Shown here: positions 4,768 through 51,743 of the stretch, piece by piece
Layout of the letters: each line of letters begins with the position of its first letter
How positions within the stretch are numbered: the first letter of the stretch is position 1
Origin: Eledone cirrhosa
Taxonomy: Eukaryota
Assembly: GCA_964016885.1 (NCBI GenBank)
Contig: OZ024745.1
Location: forward strand, 12,586,001 to 12,650,000
Reading direction: 5' to 3'
DNA length: 64,000 nt
The notes under the pieces: generated by a model
Told to the model about the DNA's origin: nothing
Database searches by the model: none
The model's input: only the letters and a program-made list of their open reading frames with translations
Program-made: the position numbers and the translations under genes

Positions 4768-4836
4768 ATGGTTAGTTCGCGAAATTGGTTAGTTCGCGAA
4801 ATTGGTTAGTTCGCGAAATTGGTTAGTTCGCGAAAT
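4768..4836 (+). repeat. 17-bp tandem repeat (TTGGTTAGTTCGCGAAA) x4
   Basis: Direct reading. Confidence 0.9.
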
Positions 4837-5142
4837 TTATTATACTTATTGACCAACCAATCAAATTACTTCTCTAAATACCTGGCGTTTCGAGCCACTT
4901 TTTTCCATATAAAACAAGTAACATTCAAAGACCAACCAGATGTGAGAAAAACCACAGACCCCCCATCTCAACTCTACTTTAGAAAAGCAGAAGAACTGCG
5001 AAACCGATAAAGGAACCAAATAAATATATATATATTTTTTAAATAAGACTCCAGTTGCATTTTCGATTTCATCTTTTTTTCTTTATACTTTCACTCGTGT
5101 AGGACACCTCGGTTATTTTTCATTTTGTAAAAAAAAACTCAC

Positions 5143-5221
<79 letters not shown>

Positions 5222-5231
<10 letters not shown>

Positions 5232-6300
5232 AAGAATCAAAGAACTGTTCAAAACATTATTGTGCTTACAGCTGTTTCCTCCAAACCGAGGTTTGGATTC
5301 TTCGGAGCAATTTATTAATGCATGGACAGTTATATGACCTCCTTTTCAGCCGAGAGACATACCAATACATATTCAAACATTGATACATATTCAAACATTG
5401 TGGGTCAACATTCATTACAGAATTTAGAGTGGCAGTACACACTTCGAGATTACATTTATATTAATAGGTACAATCAAAAATCAAAAATATAGGTTAAGAT
5501 ACAACATGAAGATAAGCGGTTATATAGTGCAAATGTTATATGTGTGGCACGCATGTGCGTCTTGTTTATATAGTGTGGCAGAGAGATATGTGTGGTAGAG
5601 GCACTTAGGTAGGTAAATCTCCATTACTTATAACACTTTTAATGCTTGCACTATCTTTAATGCTTATAATATTTCTCCACACACAGACTATATCAATCAT
5701 ATAAAGGATTTTCCACCAGATCTACCAACCTAACACTCTTATTTACCTACCTAAGTGCCTCTACCACACATATCTCTCTGCCACACTATATAAACAAGAC
5801 ACACATGCGTGCCACACATATAACATTTGCACTATATAACCGCTTATCTTCATGTTGTATCTTAACCTATATTTTTGATTTTTGATTGTACCTATTAATA
5901 TAAATGTAATCTCGAAGTGTGTACTGCCACTCTAAATTCTGTAATGAATGTTGACCCACAATGTTTGAATATGTATCAATGTTTGAATATGTATTGGTAT
6001 GTCTCTCGGCTGAAAAGGAGGTCATATAACTGTCCATGCATTAATAAATTGCTCCGAAGAATCCAAACCTCGGTTTGGAGGAAACAGCTGTAAGCACAAT
6101 AATGTTTTGAACAGTTCTTTGATTCTTATATTTCATATAACTGCTCTGTAAATCATCTGATGTTTTTACATTGAGCTACTTAACTTACTGGTAATAAGGT
6201 AGTAATACAATACTGCCTACCACTATTTAGGGTGTGTGTAAAATACTTACAACTGCTTAAGGTTTTGTATTTACATAACCATAAATAGTATAACTAATAC
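5222..6300. mobile_element. Penelope-like fold-back element (about 400-bp inverted repeat, HHR in each arm) between (TA)n tracts
   Basis: About 5222-5615 is the reverse complement of about 5742-6138. A diverged copy of the 6130-6290 tail lies at about 4570-4755. Confidence 0.8.
6050..6096 (+). ncRNA. Type I hammerhead-like motif, C4 core variant (inverted copy at 5263-5309, minus strand)
   Basis: TGCT-CCGAAGA-A-TCCAAAC-CTCG-GTTTGGA-G-GAAA-CAGCTG-TA-AGCA. Palindromic loopless stem III, GUA site. Confidence 0.72.
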
Positions 6301-16984: not shown

Positions 16985-18455
16985 TAGGAACCAGTAAGAC
17001 CCCGACAGCTGAGCTCAAGCCGTTTCGACGGCTAATTCTGGACTAAATGAACATTTATCCTGGTATTTAAATAGCCGATCTTCTCAAGGGGTAATTCCAT
17101 ATATGGTCAAAGTGATTGTCAAAAATCAGTAGTAATTCTGTGGTTGCAAATTAGTAGGGGAGATGGTGGCTAAACCTGCCAGTAGGAGAAAGAGGGGAGG
17201 GGGTGGAGTAGACCCAATCAAGCGTTGGTAGTGCCAGCTACAGCTGGGCATGAGGTCAAAGAAGATACAGGGGAGGGGGAGGGGGAAGAAGTCGGAACGG
17301 TAGGTAGAACAATGGGGGGTAAAAATAGGAAAGAAAAAATACTGAGAGTGAAGAAAAGCAAATAAGTGTAGCCTTAGTAGCCCCACTCCCCCCTCCCCTA
17401 GTCTTTGATAGATTTGGCGGACTCCGCCCTTTATAGCAGTTGGCTTAGACCCCGGATATTTGCCCCCCTTTTCCGACCGCTCCCACTATTCTCTGTGCCC
17501 TCTATATTTCTTAGTGGCACTTATGCCTTATTTTTTCGTTTCAGTATTTCTTGCTTCGCTTTTCTTCTGGGCGGGGTGGATTCTGAACTTATTTCTCCGT
17601 ATTCTACCTTTATTTCGTACGAACTTTCATGTAGCTTGTTTTAGATCTTTTAGAGTTAGCATTAGTATATATTTTTCCCGGGACTCAGAATTATTATGTC
17701 GTACAAGTTCACTTTGCTGCACTGGGTCGTTGCTGGCCCGGGATGGAAACCTTTATTGTTTATTTCGTGGTAGTCTCTTTAGTATTTTGGCCCCTTTTGT
17801 TGACCAGTCACCGTATCATTTACGTACTTATACCTCTTAAAAGGGTCCTTGCCTAATTCGTCCCACCTAGTTCTTTTACTTATTTCCTTATTTATTTATT
17901 TATTTATTTATTTACTTCTTTCTTTCTTTCTTTATTTTATTCTCGCCTAACAATAGCCTGACACCTAGGTCGTAGAATTTAATTTTTTCTTTACACTTAT
18001 TTGCTTTTCTTCACTCTCAGTATTTTTTCTTTCCTATTTTTACCCCCCATTGTTCTACCTACCGTTCCGACTTTTCCCCCTCCCCCTCCCCTGTATCTTC
18101 TTTGACCTCATGCCCAGCTGTAGCTGGCACTACCAACGCTTGATTGGGTCTACTCCACCCCCTCCCCTCTTTCTCCTACTGGCAGGTTTAGCCACCATCT
18201 CCCCTACTAATTTGCAACCACAGAATTACTACTGATTTTTGACAATCACTTTGACCATATATGGAATTACCCCTTGAGAAGATCGGCTATTTAAATACCA
18301 GGATAAATGTTCATTTAGTCCAGAATTAGCCGTCGAAACGGCTTGAGCTCAGCTGTCGGGGTCTTACTGGTTCCTATTACCCACTCTACTACCTCAAGTA
18401 TTGAGTACTTTGGTGCGTTATGGTCCACCTGGTTCCTTACCACATTTCCTTCGTT
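16985..18455. mobile_element. Non-coding Penelope-like / retrozyme-like element with about 385-bp inverted arms, inserted in (TA)n
   Basis: 16985-17370 is the reverse complement of 17992-18376. The 3' end CACATTTCCTTCGTT joins (TA)n. Short fold-back or truncated copies of the same end lie at about 15955-16118, 16133-16192, 16638-16848 and 18727-18932. Confidence 0.82.
18269..18362 (+). ncRNA. Type I hammerhead ribozyme, U3-A8 core variant, family 1 (inverted copy 16999-17092)
   Basis: ACCCC-TTGAGAA-GA(T)CGGCTA-loop-TAGCCGTC-GAAA-CGGCT-TGAGCTC-AGCTG-TC-GGGGT. GUC site ends at 18357. Confidence 0.82.
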
Positions 18456-30115: not shown

Positions 30116-30484
30116 TAGAATTTACAGTTAAACAGACTGAAAGATATTGTAGTGCTTTAGCAGAATGGCCCGGCGTTGCTCGGGATTTGCTCTAGGGTTC
30201 TTATATATTTGATATATATTTATCCTTCTCGAGTCTCGTGAAGTAAATACGTTTGTTTATATTTTGTTATTGTCTATGCAAAAATATCTGTACACGAATA
30301 TATAAATAACAGTACAGAGAAGTACGGAATACCTCGGCCTCGGATTGGTGTCTACATTTTGTGCTTATAAAAAAAATTCGTCGTAGATTACCAGGGTTTT
30401 TTCCCGTTCGAAGAAAATCAATACTTTATCGCGAAATAAATACTTTTGTTTATGTGTATGCAAAAATATCTGTAAACGAATATG

Positions 30485-30540
<56 letters not shown>

Positions 30541-30582
30541 TATAAATATATGTTATTTTAATATATATATATATATATATAT

Positions 30583-31836
30583 ATTATGAAGAGAGAAGAA
30601 ACATTTAGATATAATTAGTAATAAAATGTATCATACCTAAACTGCTCCTAGATTCCTCGACTACGTAGTTTCGTGGCATAAACAAAAACAATACATCATA
30701 AAGATATAGAGTCCTTGCGAGGTCTGCCGACTTATCAAGAGGATACCTCATTTTACTAGTCTCAAGAACGCGTCTACACGACGTGAGAAAGAATCCCAAA
30801 AGGTGGAGGGGGAGATAGTCACGCGATATAACGGTCGAGAAACAGAGCTAAGCCTCTTATAACCCCGAAGAAAATACCACGGAGGCGGAGGGGGTATTTA
30901 TATCGAAGCCGTAGAAGAGGTGGTGAAGGGGGCGAGAAGTATGAGTAATGGAAGCTTTCCAGCAGTCCCCACACTTCAAAGATTGCTCGACCAGAGGGAG
31001 TTATTAACAATATATTTAGAAACACACAGATACATGCGGACACACACATATACATGAATGCATCCGCACCCAACCGTGAGTTAAGGGTGCCAACTTCACC
31101 GATGTTGCTCAATGAATGACTGGGACAGACCAATCCGGTTGAACTAGACTGAACCAGTATCAGAGTTAAAAATACATTATGAAGAGAGAAGAAACATTTA
31201 GATATAATTAGTATGTGTGTGTCCGCATGTATCTGTGTGTTTCTAAATATATTGTTAATAACTCCCTCTGGTCGAGCAATCTTTGAAGTGTGGGGACTGC
31301 TGGAAAGCTTCCATTACTCATACTTCTCGTCTCCTTCACCACCTCTTCTACGGCTTCGATATAAATACCCCCTCCGCCTCCGTGGTATTTTCTTCGGGGT
31401 TATAAGAGGCTTAGCTCTGTTTCTCGACCGTTATATCGCGGGACTATCTCCCCCTCCACCTTTTGGGATTCTTTCTCACGTCGTGTAGACGCGTTCTTGA
31501 GACTAGTAAAATGAGGTATCCTCTTGATAAGTCGGCAGACCTCGCAAGGACTCTATATCTTTATGATGTATTGTTTTTGTTTATGCCACGAAACTACGTA
31601 GTCGAGGAATCTAGGAGCAGTTTAGGTATGATACATTTTATTACTAATTATATCTAAATGTTTCTTCTCTCTTCATAATGTATTTTTAACTCTGATACTG
31701 GTTCAGTCTAGTTCAACCGGATTGGTCTGTCCCAGTCATTCATTGAGCAACATCGGTGAAGTTGGCACCCTTAACTCACGGTTGGGTGCGGATGCATTCA
31801 TGTATATGTGTGTGTCCGCATGTATCTGTGTGTTTC

Positions 31837-31845
<9 letters not shown>
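30583..31845. mobile_element. Retrozyme-like element: two inverted, differently permuted, terminally redundant copies of a 593-nt monomer in (TA)n
   Basis: Left arm: ATTATGAAGAGAGAAGAAACATTTAGATATAATTAGTA at 30583 and again at 31176. Right arm: TATGTGTGTGTCCGCATGTATCTGTGTGTTTCTAAATATAT at 31212 and again at 31805. Both periods are 593 nt and the arms are reverse complements. Confidence 0.88.
31519..31608 (+). ncRNA. Type I hammerhead ribozyme, U3-A8 core variant, family 2 (inverted copy 30654-30743)
   Basis: TCCTC-TTGATAA-GT(C)GGCA-loop-TGCCAC-GAAA-CTACGTAG-TC-GAGGA. GUC site ends at 31603. Confidence 0.85.
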
Positions 31846-31906
<61 letters not shown>

Positions 31907-32245: not shown

Positions 32246-32356
32246 ACTCACTCACTCACTCTCTCACTCACTCACTCACACACACACACAGCGTCATAAT
32301 GACGTAGTGCAGACAGCCAGTCATATAGACAACTATTATAAGGGCGCAACGTAATA

Positions 32357-32582
32357 TCTATCTAAAAAGAGAAAGACTAAGAGAGAGAGAAAGAGATCGC
32401 TAAATCGCCTCGTGCGGTCCCTAGGGCATTGAAAATTTGAAAAAGATTTTGCTCAGAACACGCAACAGGACCATAAGTAGTACATGTGTAAAATTTGAAT
32501 ACAATCGGTTGGGTGGTTCTCGAGTTTTAGGGATTGTACAGACAGACAGACAAACAGACATTCTCTGTTTTAGTAATATAGA
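32357..32582 (-). mobile_element. Non-autonomous Helitron-like 5' end with (CTGT)n
   Basis: Minus strand A|TCTATATTACTAAAACAGAGAATGTCTGTTTGTCTGTCTG..AACCGATTGTATTCAAATTTT. Confidence 0.55.
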
Positions 32583-33033
32583 TTAAAAGATGTCATGAGA
32601 GCCACGATGTCCCAACCAATCTGGCGATCATAACGGTCGAATCATCTGTTGCAGGTCAGCTTCATTATCTCCCTGAAATGAATGTCTTTGTTAAAAAGTA
32701 TTGAGAAAATTTAACATTTGAAATGTAGTCGTCCCAATGGAAGTGACCAGAAGAATAGTCAATCACTATAAATGCTATTTGATAAAACGTTTCCTAAATT
32801 AAACGTTTTGTTTATAGTTGTAGTTACAGGCTTAAAATCTTAAAACAAGACAGAATTGCTGACCAAACTGGTTCGTTGACAGTTTATAACTCAATTTTGA
32901 AAAGACATAAAACAAAGTTCAAATAGAAAATAACAAATTCCCTGAAAAAGAAACAACATATTTGCCTGAAGTGTTGACGGTCTATTACAGCAGACTATAC
33001 ATGTGGTTAAATACACGACTACCCATTTACAGC

Positions 33034-45409: not shown

Positions 45410-48400
45410 TGCCTCCATACACTTAGCCCAATAATCCTTTATCAAGTTACGTCACTTGTGCCTCCATACACTTAGCCCAGTGATCCTTCATCAAGTTACG
45501 CCCCTTGTGCCTCCATACACTTAGCCCAATAATCCTTTATCAAGTTACGTCACTTGTGCCTCCATACACTTAGCCCAATAATCCTTTATCAAGTTACGCC
45601 ACTTGTGCCTCCATACACTTAGCCCAGTGATCCTTCATCAAGTTACGCCCCTTGTGCCTCCATACATTTAGCCGAGTGATCCTTCATCTAGTTACGCCCC
45701 TTGTACCTCCATACACTTAGCCCAATAATCCTTCTTCAAGTTACGCCCCTTGTGCCTCCATACACGTAGCCCAGTGATCCTTCAGGAAGTTACGCCCCTT
45801 GTGCCGCCATACACTTAGCCCAGTGATCCTTCTTCAAGTTACGCCCATTGTGCCTCCATACACTTAGCCCAGTGATCCTTCTTCAAATTACGCCCCTTTT
45901 GCCTCCATACACTTATCCCAGTGATCCTTCATCAAGTTACGCCCCTTGTGCATCCATACACTTAGCCCAGTGATCCTTCTTCAAGTTACGCCCCTTGTGC
46001 CTCCATACACTTAGCCCAGTGACCCTTTATCAAGTTACGCCCCTTGTGCCTCCATACACTTAGCCCAGTGATCCTTCTTCAAGTTACACCCCTTGTGCCT
46101 CCATACACTTATCCCAGTGATCCTTCATCAAGTTACGCCCCTTGTGCTTCCATACACTTAGCCCAGTGATCCTTCTTCAAGTTACGCCCCTTTTCCCTCC
46201 ATACACTTAGCCCAATAATTCTTCTTCAAGTTACGCACTTTGTGCCTCCATACACTTAGCCGAGTGATCCTTCTTCAAGTTACGCCCCTTGTGCCTCCAT
46301 ACACTTAGCCCAGTGATCCTTCTTTAAGTTACGCCCCTTCTGCCTCCATACACTTAGCCCAGTGATCCTTCTTCAAGTTACGCCCCTTGTGCATCCATAC
46401 ACTTAGCCCAGTGATCCTTCTTTAAGTTACGCCCCTTCTGCCTCCATACACTTAGCCCAGTGATCCTTCTTCAAGTTACGCCCCTTATGCCTCCATACAC
46501 TTAGCCCAGTGATCATTCATCAAGTTACGCCCCTTGTGCCTCCATACACTTAGCCCAATAATCCTTCTTCAAGTTACGAACCTTGTGCCTCAATACACTT
46601 AGCCCAGTGATCCTTCATCAAGTTACGCCCAGTGTGCCTCCATGCACTTAGCCCAGTGAACCTTCTTCAAGTTACGCCCCTTCTGCCTCCATACACTTAG
46701 CCCAGTGATCCTTCATGAAGTTACGCCCAGTGTGCCTCCATGCACTTAGCCCAGTGATCCTTCTTCAAGTTACGCCCCTTCTGCCTCCATACACTTAGCC
46801 CAGTGATCCTTCTTCAAGCTACGCCTCTTGTGCCTCCATACACTTAGCCCAATAATCCTTCTTCAAGTTACGAACCTTGTGCCTCAATACACTTAGCCGA
46901 GTGATCCTTCATCAAGTTACGCCCCTTGTGCCTCCATACACTTATCCCAGTGATCCTTCTTCAAGTTACGCGCCTTGTGCATCCATACACTTAGCCCAGT
47001 GATCATTCATCAAGTTACGTCCCTTGTGCCGCCATACACTTAGCCCAGTGATCCTTCTTCAAGTTACACCCCTTGTGCCTCCATACACTTAGCCCAGTGA
47101 TCCTTCATCAAGTTACGCCTAGTGTGCCTCCATGCACTTAGCCCAGTGATCCTTCTTCAAGTTACGCCCCTTCTGCCGCCATACACTTAGCCCAGTGATC
47201 CTTCATCAAGTTACGCCCCTTGTCCCTCCATACACTTAGCCCAGTGATCCTTCTTCAAGTTACGCCCCTTGTGCCTCCATACACTTAGCCGAGTGATCCT
47301 TCATCAAGTTACGCCCCTTGTGCCTCCATACACTTATTCCAGTGATCCTTCTTCAAGTTACGCCCCTTGTGCCTCCATACACTTAGCCCAGTGATCCTTC
47401 TTCAAGTTACGCCCCTTGTGCCTCCATACACTTAGCCCAATAATCCTTCTTCAAGTTACGCCCCTTGTGCCTCCATACACTTAGCCCAATAATCCTTCTT
47501 CAAGTTACGCCCCTTGTGCCTCCATACACTTAGCCCAGTGATCCTTTATCAAGTTACGCCCCTTGTGCCTCCATACACTTAGCACAATAATCCTTCTTCA
47601 AGTTACGCCCCTTGTGCCTCCATACACATAGCCCAGTGATCCTTCTTCAAGTTAGGCTCGTTGTGCCTCCATACACTTAGCCCAATAATCTTTTATCAAG
47701 TTACGCCCCTTGTGCCTCCATACACTTAGCCCAGTGATCCTGCTTCAAGTTACGCCCCTTGTGCCTCCATAGACTTAGCCCAGTGATCCTTCTTCAAGTT
47801 ACGCCCCTTGTGCCTCCATCCATTTAGCCCAATAATCTTTTATCAAGTTACGCCCCTTGTGCCTCCATACACTTAGCCCAGTGATCCTTCTTCAAGTTAC
47901 GCGCCTTGTGCCTCCATACACTTAGCACAATAATCCTTCTTCAAGTTAGGCTCGTTGTGCCTTCATACACTTAGCCCAATAATCCTTTTTCAAGTTACGC
48001 CCCTTGTGCCTCCATACATTTAGCCCAGTGATCCTGTTTCAAGTTACGCCCCTTGTGCCTCCATACACTTAGCCCAGTGATCCTTCATCAAGTTACGCCC
48101 CTTGTGCCTCCATACACTTAGCCCAGTGATCCTTCATCAAGTTACGCCCCTTGTGCCTCCATACACTTATCCCAGTGATCCTTCATCAAGTTACGCCCCT
48201 TGTGCCTCCATACACTGAGGCACAAAAGTCGTAACTTGAAGAAGGATCACTGGGCTAGGTGTATGGAGGCACAAGGGGCGTAACTTGAAGAAGGATCACT
48301 GGGCTAAGTGTATGGAGGCACAAGGGGCGTAACATGATGAAGGATCACTGGGCTAAGTGTATGGAGGCACAAGGGGCGTAACATGAAGAAGGATCACTGG

Positions 48401-51400
48401 GCCAAGTGTATGGAGGCACATGGTGCGTAACTTGATGAAGGATCACTGGGCTAAGTGTATGGAGGCACAAGGGGCGTAACTTGATGAAGGATCACTGGGC
48501 TAAGTGTATGGGGGCACAAGGGGCGTAACTTGAAGAAGGATCACTGGGATAAGTGTATGGAGGCACAAGGGGCGTAACTTGATGAAGGATCACTCGGCTA
48601 AGTGTATGGAAGCACAAGGGGCGTAACTTGAAGAAGGATCACTGGGCTAAGTGTATGGAGGCACAAGGTGCGTAACTTGAAGAAGAATTATTGGGCTAAG
48701 TGTATGGAGGCAAAAGGGGCGTAACTTGAAGAAGGATCACTGGGCTAAGTGTATGGAGGCACAAGGTTCGTAACTTGAAGAAGAATTATTGGGCTAAGTG
48801 TATGGAGGCACAAAGGGCGTAACTTGAAGAAGGATTATTGGGCTAAGTGTATGGAAGCACAAGGGGCGTAACTTGATGAAGGATCACTGGGATAAGTGTA
48901 TGGAAGCACAAGGGGCGTAACTTGAAGAAGGATCACTGGGCTAAATGTATGGAGGCACAAGGGGCGTAACTTGATAAAGGGTTATTGGGCTAAGTGTATG
49001 GAGGCACACTGGGCGTAACTTGATGAAGGATCACTGGGCTAAGTGTATGGAGGCACAAGGGGCGTAACTTGAAGAAGGATCACTGGGCTAATTGTATGGA
49101 GGCACAAGGGGCGTAACTTGATAAAGGGTTATTGTACTAAGTGTATGGAGGCACAAGGGGCGTAACTTGATGAAGGATCACTGGGCTAAGTGTATGGAGG
49201 CACAAGGGGCGTAACTTGAAGAAGGATCACTGGGCTAAGTGTATGGACCCACAAGGGGCTTAACTTGAAGGAGGATCACTCGGCTAAGTGTATGAGGCAC
49301 AAGGGGCGTAACTTGAAGAAGGATCACTGGGCTAAGTGTATGGAGGCACAAGGGGCGTAACTTGATTAAGGGTAATTGGGCTAAGTGTATGGAGGCACAA
49401 AGGGCGTAACTTGATAAAGGGTTATTGGGCTAAGTGTATAGAGGCACAAGGAGCTTAACTTGAAAAGGATCACTGGGCTAAGTGTATGGAGGCACAAGGG
49501 GCGTAACTTGAAGAAGGATCACTGGGCTATGTGCATGGAGGCACAAGGGGCGTAACTTGAAAAGGATCACTGGGCTAAGTGTATGGAGGCACACTGGGCG
49601 TAACTTGATGAAGGATCACTGGGCTAAGTGTATGGACCCACAAGCGGCGTAACTTGAAGAAGGATCACTGGGCTAAGTGTATGGAGGCACAAGGGCCGTA
49701 ACTTGAAGAAGGATCACTGGGCTAAATGTATGGAGCACAAGGGGCGTAACTTGAAGAAGGATCACTGGGCTAAGTGTATGGAGGCACAAGGGGCGTAACT
49801 TGATGAAGGATTATTGGGCTAAGTGTATGGAGGCACAAGGGGCGTAACTTGATGAAGGATTATTGGGCTGAGTGTATGGAGGCACAAGGGGCGTAACTTG
49901 ATAAATGATCACTGGGCTAAGTGTATGGAGTCACGAGGGGCGTAACTTGATAAAGGATCACTGGGCTAAGTGTATGGAGGCACAAGGGGCGTAACTTGAT
50001 GAAGGATTATTGGGCTAAGTGTATGGAGCCAAACGGGGCGTAACTTGAAGAAGGATCACTGGGCTAAGTGTATGGAGGCACAAGGGGCGTAACTTGATGA
50101 AGGATTATTGGGCTAAGTGTATGGAGGCACAAGGGGCGTAACTTGAAGAAGGATCACTGGGCTAAGTGTATGGAGGCACAAGGGGCGTAACTTGAAGAAG
50201 GATCACTGGGCTAAGTGTATGGAGGCACAAGGGGCGTAACTTGATAAAGGATTATTGTGCTGAGTGTATGGAGGCACAAGGGGCGTAACTTGATGAAGGA
50301 TTATTGGGCTAAGTGTATGGAGGCACAAGGGGCGTAACTTGAAGAAGGATCACTGGGCTAAGTGTATGGAGTCACGAGGGGCGTAACTTGATAAAGGATC
50401 ACTGGGCTAAGTGTATGGAGGCACAAGGGGCGTAACTTGATGAAGGATTATTGGGCTAAGTGTATGGTGCCAAACGGGGCGTAACTTGAAGAAGGATCAC
50501 TGGGCTAAGTGTATGGAGGCACAAGGGGCGTAACTTGATGAAGGATTATTGGGCTAAGTGTATGGAGGCACAAGGGGCGTAACTTGAAGAAGGATCACTG
50601 GGCTAAGTGTATGGAGGCACAAGGGGCGTAACTTGAAGAAGGATTATTGGGCTAGGTGTATGGAGGCAAAAGGGGCGTAACTTGATGAAGGATCACTGGG
50701 CTAAGTGTATGGAGGCACAAGGGGCGTAACTTGATGAAGGATTATTGGGCTAAGTGTATGGAGGCACAAGGGGCGTAACTTGAAGAAGGATCACTGGGCT
50801 AAGTGTATGGAGGCACAAGGGGCGTAACTTGAAGAAGGATTATTGGGCTAAGTGTATGGAGGCACAAGGGGCGTAACCTGATGAAGTATCACTGGGCTAA
50901 GTGTATGGAGGCACAAGGTGCGTAACTTGAAGAAGGATTATTGGGCTAAGCGTATGGAGGCACAAGGGGCGTAACTTGAAGAATGATTATTGGGCTAAGT
51001 GTATGGAGGCACAAGGGGCGTAACTTGAAGAAGGATCACTGGGCTAAGTGTATGGAGGCACAAGGGGCGTAACTTGATGAAGGATCACTGGGCTAAGTGT
51101 ATGGAGGCACAAGGGGCGTAACTTGAAGAAGGATCACTGGGCTAAGTGTATGGAGGCACAAGGGGCGTAACTTGAAGAAGGATCACTGGGCTAAGTGTAT
51201 GGAGGCACAAGGGGCGTAACTTGAAGAAGGATCACTGGGCTAAGTGTATGGAGGCACAAGGGTCGTAACTTGAAGAAGGATCACTGGGCTAAGTGTATGG
51301 AGGCACAAGGGGCGTAACTTGATGAAGGATCACTGGGCTAAGTGTATGGAGGCACAAGGGGCGTAACTTGAAGAAGGATCACTAGGCTAAGTGTATGGAG

Positions 51401-51743
51401 GCACAAGGGGCGTAACTTGAAGAAGGATCACTGGGCTAAGTGTATGGAGGCACAAGAGTCGTAACTTGAAGAAGGATCACTGGGCTAAGTGTATGGAGGC
51501 ACAAGGGGCGTAACTTGAAGGAATACTGGGCTAAGTGTATGGAGGCACAAGGGGCGTAACTTGAAGAAGGATCACTGGGCTAAGTGTATGGAGGCACAAG
51601 GGGCGTAACTTGATGAAGGATCACTGGGCTAAGTGTATGGAGGCACAAGGGGCGTAACTTGAAGAAGGATCACTGGGCTAAGTGTATGGAGGCACAAGAG
51701 GCGTAACTTGAAGAATGATTATTGGGCTAAGTGTATGGAGGCA
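45410..51743. repeat. 49-bp intronic satellite with a strand switch at 48216/48217 (giant inverted repeat)
   Basis: TGCCTCCATACACTTAGCCCAGTGATCCTTCTTCAAGTTACGCCCCTTG, about 57 units, followed by about 72 units of its reverse complement. Confidence 0.96.

Follow-up and report, generated by a model that had tools for sequence, protein, structure and literature searches.

How does a genome come to carry two copies of one non-coding repeat unit set head to head, each starting at a different point of the unit and each ending in (TA)n, and from what template were they copied? This question is raised by a fold-back at 30579-31845 of the window, by which we mean the whole 64,000-nt stretch of Eledone cirrhosa DNA analysed here (assembly GCA_964016885.1, contig OZ024745.1, positions 12,586,001 to 12,650,000 of the forward strand).

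Layout of the insertion

The fold-back is made of two head-to-head arms between two (TA)n tracts, with the 3' ends of both arms pointing outward and their 5' ends meeting at a junction with a 2-nt TA overlap. In the unit numbering used below, window position 31604 is unit position 1. In window coordinates, the features of the insertion are:

30489-30584, no strand: left (TA)n target tract (from sequence)
30579-31213, minus strand: left arm, 635 nt, 1.07 units (from arm alignment)
30654-30743, minus strand: type I hammerhead of the left arm, predicted cut 30659/30658
30895-30902, minus strand: left-arm copy of TATAAATA, putative promoter (from sequence)
31212-31213, no strand: head-to-head junction of both truncated 5' ends, 2-nt overlap
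31212-31845, plus strand: right arm, 634 nt, 1.07 units (from arm alignment)
31252-31260, plus strand: internal copy of the long start site, read through (unit 242-250, AATATAT/TTGTTAA)
31360-31367, plus strand: TATAAATA, putative promoter, ~160 nt upstream of the hammerhead core (from sequence)
31519-31608, plus strand: type I hammerhead of the right arm, predicted cut 31603/31604
31676-31683, plus strand: internal copy of the short start site, read through (unit 80, CATAATGTAT)
31840-31901, no strand: right (TA)n target tract (from sequence)

The left arm starts (5') at unit 39 and finishes (3') at unit 80, the 'short' fixed end, at window position 30579; the right arm starts at unit 202 and finishes at unit 242, the 'long' fixed end, at window position 31845. 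Both arms have a period of 593 nt, with a redundancy of 41/41 nt in the right arm and 41/42 nt in the left (38 nt counted from 30583), and each carries one hammerhead. The longest stop-free frame on the 593-nt circle is 149 aa, and unit lengths of 591, 593 and 595 nt are all common, so no reading frame is conserved. Snap-back copying of the first cDNA is ruled out at this locus, since by their coordinates neither arm is nested in the other. A preliminary description of this DNA had reported two arms of 593-nt period with a short redundancy, beginning at different points of the unit, each with one intact hammerhead read through its cut site, without a credible open reading frame, with a sequence at about 31360 and with (TA)n adjoining both ends. 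All of these points stand: the sequence is TATAAATA, the (TA)n tracts are read directly, frame-breaking length variants accompany the short frames, and the hammerheads are supported by motif, predicted fold and conservation.

The same description had named an assembly artefact as what might undo its reading. This is ruled out because the two arms differ at 4 of 472 overlapping bases, the same layout recurs at dozens of independent loci, and the insertion is found with its flanks at three further places on the same contig. These four occurrences (L002, L001, L004 and L022, at 12.44, 12.62, 12.79 and 12.98 Mb) are spaced 175-190 kb apart at 97-99% identity, and their recurrence is evidently a large tandem segmental duplication.

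Several other repeats were recorded in the window. Those flanking the insertion at 30150-30490 and 32330-32590 resemble what we take to be Helitron-type non-autonomous elements. A head-to-head palindrome of a 49-nt minisatellite, with 57 copies and then 72 inverted ones around a junction at ~48216, occupies 45410-51743 and may be another two-armed insertion. Near-perfect fold-backs between (TA)n also lie at 5224-6135 and 16987-18374, with arms of 395 and 384 nt (99.7%).

A family of thousands of copies

The repeat is one of thousands of young, non-coding copies with a predicted self-cutting RNA. In the 3.0-Gb genome, a 24-mer spanning the cut has 7,135 exact matches against 0 for its reversed control, so the family is not due to chance, and the short end joined to TA has 2,578 matches. 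Three samples of insertions were drawn: 27 from the 30 best-scoring loci, three segmental duplicates having been dropped; a positional sample of 49, from the 50 clusters formed by the first 100 pattern matches less one near-duplicate; and 60 from the first 100 short-end matches, namely those beyond 54 Mb, minus one already sampled and minus the last three. Unit length ranges from 585 to 607 nt with a mode of 591 (591, 593 and 595 nt make up 34, 14 and 9 of 68 intervals), and arrays of consecutive head-to-tail copies with intact hammerheads reach 4.9 units.

A sister family with a 594-nt unit, 76% identical, yielded at least 1,922 candidates at a first look, and 27 of its insertions were analysed (loci within L206-L234); its stem I measures 7 bp, and its two ends match those of the 593-nt family. 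A relaxed hammerhead pattern search found merely 3 deletion variants and no parent element.

The predicted hammerhead

The hammerhead is ordered TCCTC, TTGATAA, stem II with a long hairpin, GAAA, ACTACGTAGT and C, followed by GAGGA. In the right arm, stem I pairs 31519-31523 with 31604-31608, the TTGATAA core of U3-A8 type lies at 31524-31530 and GAAA at 31590-31593, stem II is capped by a hairpin of ~35 nt, and stem III is a 10-nt palindrome (31593-31602) with a possible duplex of -12.9 kcal/mol. An Rfam scan of 28-35 kb at E<=5 did not detect the hammerhead; the call rests on motif, fold and conservation. The 593-nt family and its sister are identical at 45 of 49 positions of core and stems, versus 407 of 544 elsewhere (p=0.005). 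Folding z scores (25 shuffles) are -7.7 for the sense circle, -0.6 for the antisense and -5.0 for the sister family. In the loop-II hairpin 98.7% of cells are paired, and 9 of its 13 pairs vary yet stay paired. Covariation barely tests the core, since pairs of stems I, II and III are nearly invariant and just 1 of 29 pairs has changed on both sides. Purifying constraint at the RNA level is seen in the family conservation, the sense-only folding signal and the loop-II pairing. The active hammerhead is distinct from the minimum-energy fold of the circle.

The core had been described beforehand as a variant one. U3-A8 is indeed present, but it is no novelty, having already been described in Penelope-like elements of Schistosoma (PMC4209133), and it is also shared by coding families A and D of the Penelope-like elements in this genome.

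Two fixed 3' ends and their pairing

Across the family, 3' ends fall at two fixed sites, 80 and 242-250 nt past the cut, and 5' ends vary. Among the 76 arms of the positional sample, 36 end at 80, 35 at 242-250 and 5 elsewhere, with 5' ends spread round the unit (Rayleigh p about 0.08). The preliminary description had traced the permuted arm starts to free entry on a circle and proposed tabulating the permutation points and flanks of genomic copies. The tabulation recovered the (TA)n-flanked two-arm copies, but it gave two fixed 3' ends with variable 5' truncation instead of free entry. Nor was each arm copied slightly more than once as a rule: arm lengths range from 0.13 to 4.9 units and only 4 of the 76 arms measure 1.0-1.15 units, so that the 1.07 unit per arm in the window is a matter of chance and was dropped as a signature. 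The lengths of paired arms are uncorrelated (rho -0.16, p 0.25).

All two-arm insertions examined, in both families, consist of a minus arm followed by a plus arm with the 3' ends outward. A short end is paired with a long one in 22 of 22 classifiable two-arm insertions of the positional sample (4 being unclassifiable) and in 16 of 17 of the score-picked set, in which L012 is long plus long and L023 unclassifiable. Of the 60 insertions chosen by their short end, 30 have a long partner, 29 have none and 1 has a partner that could not be classified; no partner is short. Over all three samples, 68 of 69 classifiable fold-backs are thus short plus long. The sister family has 18 short-plus-long insertions, 1 long-plus-long, 3 of other kinds and 5 with a single arm; the long-plus-long exceptions in the two families are L012 and L218. 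Each fixed end carries an AAT(A/G)TAT motif resembling the target. Insertion ends sit in (TA)n, and 48 of 61 single-arm 5' junctions are TA-rich too.

A fold bringing the two start sites together was considered and found unsupported, their graph distance lying at the 38th-46th percentile (two units, 593-nt family). As a separate observation, 5' truncations cluster at unit 386-402 (window 31396-31412) in 11 of 76 and 5 of 91 arms; the cluster lies 30-50 nt past the TATA box, at the base of a predicted hairpin, and could be either a transcription start or an RT pause.

A probable single template per insertion

Within insertions of the first two samples, arms differ at 167 of 28,861 positions and units at 153 of 30,421, and between insertions the medians are mostly 2-3% difference. 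At polymorphic sites in all 136 insertions, the arms disagree in 3 of 714 comparisons, against 33% in 1,000 shuffles (minimum 23%); a recurring discordance at unit position 115 proved to be an alignment artefact. Among rare variants, 35 are common to both arms (in 18 of 74 insertions) and 88 occur in one arm only, and in multi-unit arms such variants occupy all units 32 times, a single unit 150 times and part of the units twice. Individual loci illustrate this: L133 has a private two-base variant in 7 of 7 scored units across both arms, L134 a private change in 4 of 4 units, and in L236 the two passes of one arm share a 26-nt deletion that the pattern search found nowhere else. The near-concordance of arms, together with rare variants that recur in both arms and in all units, points to one template per insertion, although two RNAs transcribed from a single active locus could give matching arms as well, and gene conversion may have added to the likeness afterwards.

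Unequal crossing-over and conversion readily affect repeats in tandem or inverted order, and segmental duplications are present in this genome, so one may argue that the arrays and the likeness of arms arose later in DNA, by unequal crossing-over and by conversion between inverted arms. Such a history would leave the fixed 3' ends and the short-plus-long rule unexplained; moreover, 88 one-arm variants persist beside the 35 two-arm ones, and partial patterns are almost absent. We therefore regard it as very unlikely.

A mutation in a single unit can reach all units in no other way than through a monomer, from which we infer a monomer stage followed by re-multimerisation, and it is this bottleneck that argues for a circle. 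The same consideration bears on a rival account that keeps the enzyme and the start sites but takes as template an uncut or partly cut linear multimer from a genomic array, whether as one RNA or as two from one locus. Multimer loci of up to 4.9 units do exist, and the clustered 5' ends at unit 386-402 lie downstream of the TATA box. Unprocessed linear RNA is also the dominant in vitro substrate in PMC11167929, where hammerhead mutants were still inserted and no RNA-seq ends were found at the cut site of that element. However, linear copying only shortens arrays, as the mean arm length of 579 nt implies, yet arms of 4-5 units occur, and a new mutation would still need a monomer to reach all units, as it did in 32 cases against 2 partial ones. 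A linear multimer as template is a real possibility but, in our view, a doubtful one.

Reading through the cut site

Exact matches number 7,240 for the sequence immediately before the cut, 7,135 for the one spanning it and 7,136 for the one immediately after, and since the three counts are level, copying crosses the cut nearly always and without a scar. Such crossing would fit a ligated circle or an uncut RNA, not a cut linear monomer. Arms do occasionally stop exactly at the cut: 2 arms in 116 passes of the 593-nt family (0.20 expected, P 0.018) and 1 arm in 45 passes of the sister family, which together make 3 stops (L167, L177 and L227) against 0.31 expected (joint P about 0.004). This count excludes L171 and L174 as alignment artefacts, and L222 is ambiguous by microhomology. 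The stops are a weak hint that the site may be cut or ligated in vivo, and they suit the linear multimer too, as linear RNAs with a cut 5' end would stop at this point.

They also bear on a cut linear monomer as template, on which the RT would jump from the 5' end to the 3' end of the same RNA and so produce multimers. Template jumping occurs in other RTs, and such a route would yield the same monomer bottleneck as a circle and account for the rare stops at the cut. But it sits poorly with a junction that is exact in nearly all copies, with matches that show no excess downstream of the cut, and with stops in just about 2 of 116 passes; we consider it quite unlikely.

A self-closing 620-nt contig, found singly in one of four runs of unknown kind, was rejected as evidence of a circle, because tandem DNA at low depth looks alike. 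Of the circular or multimeric template put forward in the preliminary description, the passage across the cut site has held up and the shared variants favour a circle, while the circular RNA itself keeps the standing of a prediction. A circular RNA template is, in our estimate, somewhat favoured.

Penelope-like elements as the probable source of the mobilising enzyme

The genome holds 10,597 GIY-YIG candidates, of which 150 were scored. Open frames of 938 and 1,096 aa were found among the fetched loci, as near-intact Neptune-type frames at L061:3812-6622 (-) and L063:1775-5062 (+), and at L061 the coding element is itself permuted, with a unit of ~4,980 nt and a terminal redundancy of ~985 nt. 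Pfam identified RT in 4 of 5 scanned proteins and GIY-YIG in 3 of 5, and families A, B, D and E carry the CX4CxxC linker that is given for Neptune and Nematis (PMC8557442). In six local coding families, two ends separated by 38-66 nt lie downstream of a hammerhead. In families A, D and E the inverted pairs, found by pattern, are short plus long in 6 of 6 cases, and coding families leave short fold-back stumps that obey the same rule. In the in vitro work of PMC11167929, a Penelope protein cleaved each of the two strands and extended it, and copying began at two sites inside the RNA, which set the limits of the 'tail'. Given the same end rule in the local coding families and these in vitro start sites, the 593-nt repeat bears the insertion signature of Penelope-like enzymes. 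It is almost certainly a non-coding hammerhead repeat mobilised by such an enzyme, and the earlier suggestion of a retrozyme-like repeat moved in this way is upheld by the family and by its paired fixed ends.

The coding families also raise the alternative that there is a long coding Penelope-like element of which the unit is just the terminal repeat (pLTR) and the copies are stumps; the preliminary description had named this as grounds for abandoning its reading. Coding families here do leave stumps with this end rule, and Xenopus retrozymes are homologous to pLTRs (bioRxiv 10.64898/2026.07.22.740005). In a tblastn screen, however, none of 109 insertions ran on into a coding frame of which it would be the 3' repeat, and the sequence upstream of the hammerhead is another copy of the 591-nt unit, which makes this alternative extremely improbable. 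A search for a parent found no homology in 44 loci of the 10,597 GIY-YIG candidates, bar one nested copy, and end-motif matches to local families reached a z of at most 2.8 among 12 comparisons, none of them clear. A rare or extinct coding parent is possible. Three loci were rejected as evidence of a parent: at L056 and L019 the repeat has inserted into the TA-rich 3' UTR of family E, and L124 has a (TA)n tract in common with family G.

Several further observations concern the surroundings of these elements. Several Penelope families accumulate in the same (TA)n tracts. At L072:6330-6900 lies a further abundant family inserted in (TA)n, whose hammerhead is of the canonical CTGAAGA type and whose two ends are separated by 60 nt. 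In the window itself, 4829-5149 is a 3' end of coding family A (88% identical, hammerhead region) running into (TA)n. At L173:1409-2332, in a single case that offers a lead, the 5' end of an arm joins the middle of the family F ORF directly and in the same orientation. At L211:1-1330, an arm of the sister family stands head-to-head with the GIY-YIG end of coding family G with no (TA)n between them, a join that is possibly a chimeric event.

Proposed mechanism

We think it rather likely that the fold-back was made by a Penelope-like enzyme priming both (TA)n strands on one, probably circular, RNA. The proposed sequence of events would start with transcription of multimer genomic copies, from which the hammerhead, probably dimeric via the palindromic stem III, would excise monomers of ~591 nt, and a host ligase would circularise them. 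A GIY-YIG/RT dimer of a Neptune-type element would then cut (TA)n and prime one strand at unit 80 and the other at unit 242-250, each at the AAT(A/G)TAT motif that is like the target. Both RTs would circle the same ring, each displacing the cDNA made by the other, over roughly one unit as a mean and five at most, and microhomology would finally join the two cDNA ends. A single arm ending in (TA)n would mean that only one strand was primed or that one product was lost. In its full form, the fold-back would be frozen double rolling-circle reverse transcription, carried out by an RT/endonuclease dimer on one ribozyme circle from two fixed starts, and to this we assign about an even chance (roughly 0.5).

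Both the enzyme that moves animal retrozymes and the circle as template have been proposed before (PMC7229834), and the later steps towards the inverted copy with a one-sided tail are left unvalidated in the available part of PMC11167929. The present family offers ~2,600 short ends of young insertions, a near-strict pairing of ends, and sequence variants by which both arms can be traced to one template. With its 591-nt non-coding unit as substrate, and with nearly intact candidate enzymes in the same genome, linear and circular templates could moreover be compared directly. If double rolling-circle copying is true, the family provides genomic evidence of an animal circular RNA as a template for transposition; the inverted copy plus tail of Penelope-like elements would then reflect an obligatory pairing of two start sites, and circles would possibly serve coding elements too.

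Comparison with known systems

The closest likeness of the 593-nt repeat in kind is to EN+ Penelope-like elements on the one side and to metazoan non-LTR retrozymes on the other. As in Neptune and Nematis (Craig et al. 2021, PMC8557442), insertions comprise an inverted 5'-truncated copy, a one-sided tail and a bias to (TA)n, and the hammerhead lies upstream of two internal start sites as in the element of Frangieh et al. (2024, PMC11167929). The coding families here resemble EN+ elements in their RT, CX4CxxC linker and GIY-YIG domain and follow the same end rule as the 593-nt family, which, unlike autonomous EN+ elements, has no RT/GIY-YIG ORF. The tail measures 162-170 nt in the 593-nt family, compared with 38-66 nt in the six local families and 30-40 nt in published elements. 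Furthermore, the available part of PMC11167929 describes initiation without homology to the target and no difference in start site between strands, and the ends of single events are not paired there, whereas the ends of the 593-nt family resemble the (TA)n target and are paired almost strictly. A literature search covering the main texts of openly available papers found no description of retrozymes with paired ends or with arms copied from the same template; the question of pairing may be touched on in Fig. S2 of PMC11167929.

With minimal Penelope hammerheads such as those of Schistosoma (Cervera and de la Pena 2014, PMC4209133), the repeat shares the U3-A8 covariation and a palindromic stem III suited to dimer cleavage, but it differs in being a non-coding, multimerising unit and in the greater length, 10 nt, of its palindromic stem III. 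Non-autonomous Chlamys elements, for example MRC1 (PMC8557442), are likewise non-coding dependants of Penelope elements with multicopy head-to-tail arrangement. In contrast to the 593-nt family, for which no homologous parent was found in 44 loci, they share 3' sequence with autonomous families, and most Chlamys are reported to be without canonical hammerheads.

With metazoan non-LTR retrozymes the repeat has in common a non-coding, head-to-tail organization with one type I hammerhead per unit, low GC, the absence of an LTR, high copy number, a predicted self-paired circle and Penelope-like elements alongside. The unit had seemed longer than animal retrozymes, but 593 nt falls within the 51-972 bp given for metazoan retrozymes (Li et al. 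2026, bioRxiv 10.64898/2026.07.22.740005), though it exceeds the 150-450 bp given by Cervera and de la Pena (2020, PMC7229834), who name the mobilising RT as a candidate only. Metazoan retrozymes are described, in the parts of these sources that were available, as tandem repeats with TSDs, whereas the 593-nt family makes two-armed, paired-end, (TA)n-targeted insertions, and its U3-A8 core with a long loop-II hairpin is unlike the metazoan retrozymes compared. Circular RNA has been demonstrated for published metazoan retrozymes, and for the 593-nt family it is a prediction. With cleavage and circle predicted, the 593-nt repeat fits the sequence-level definition of a metazoan non-LTR retrozyme: an element ordinary in kind, a further animal retrozyme, whose mechanistic footprints are unusually clear.
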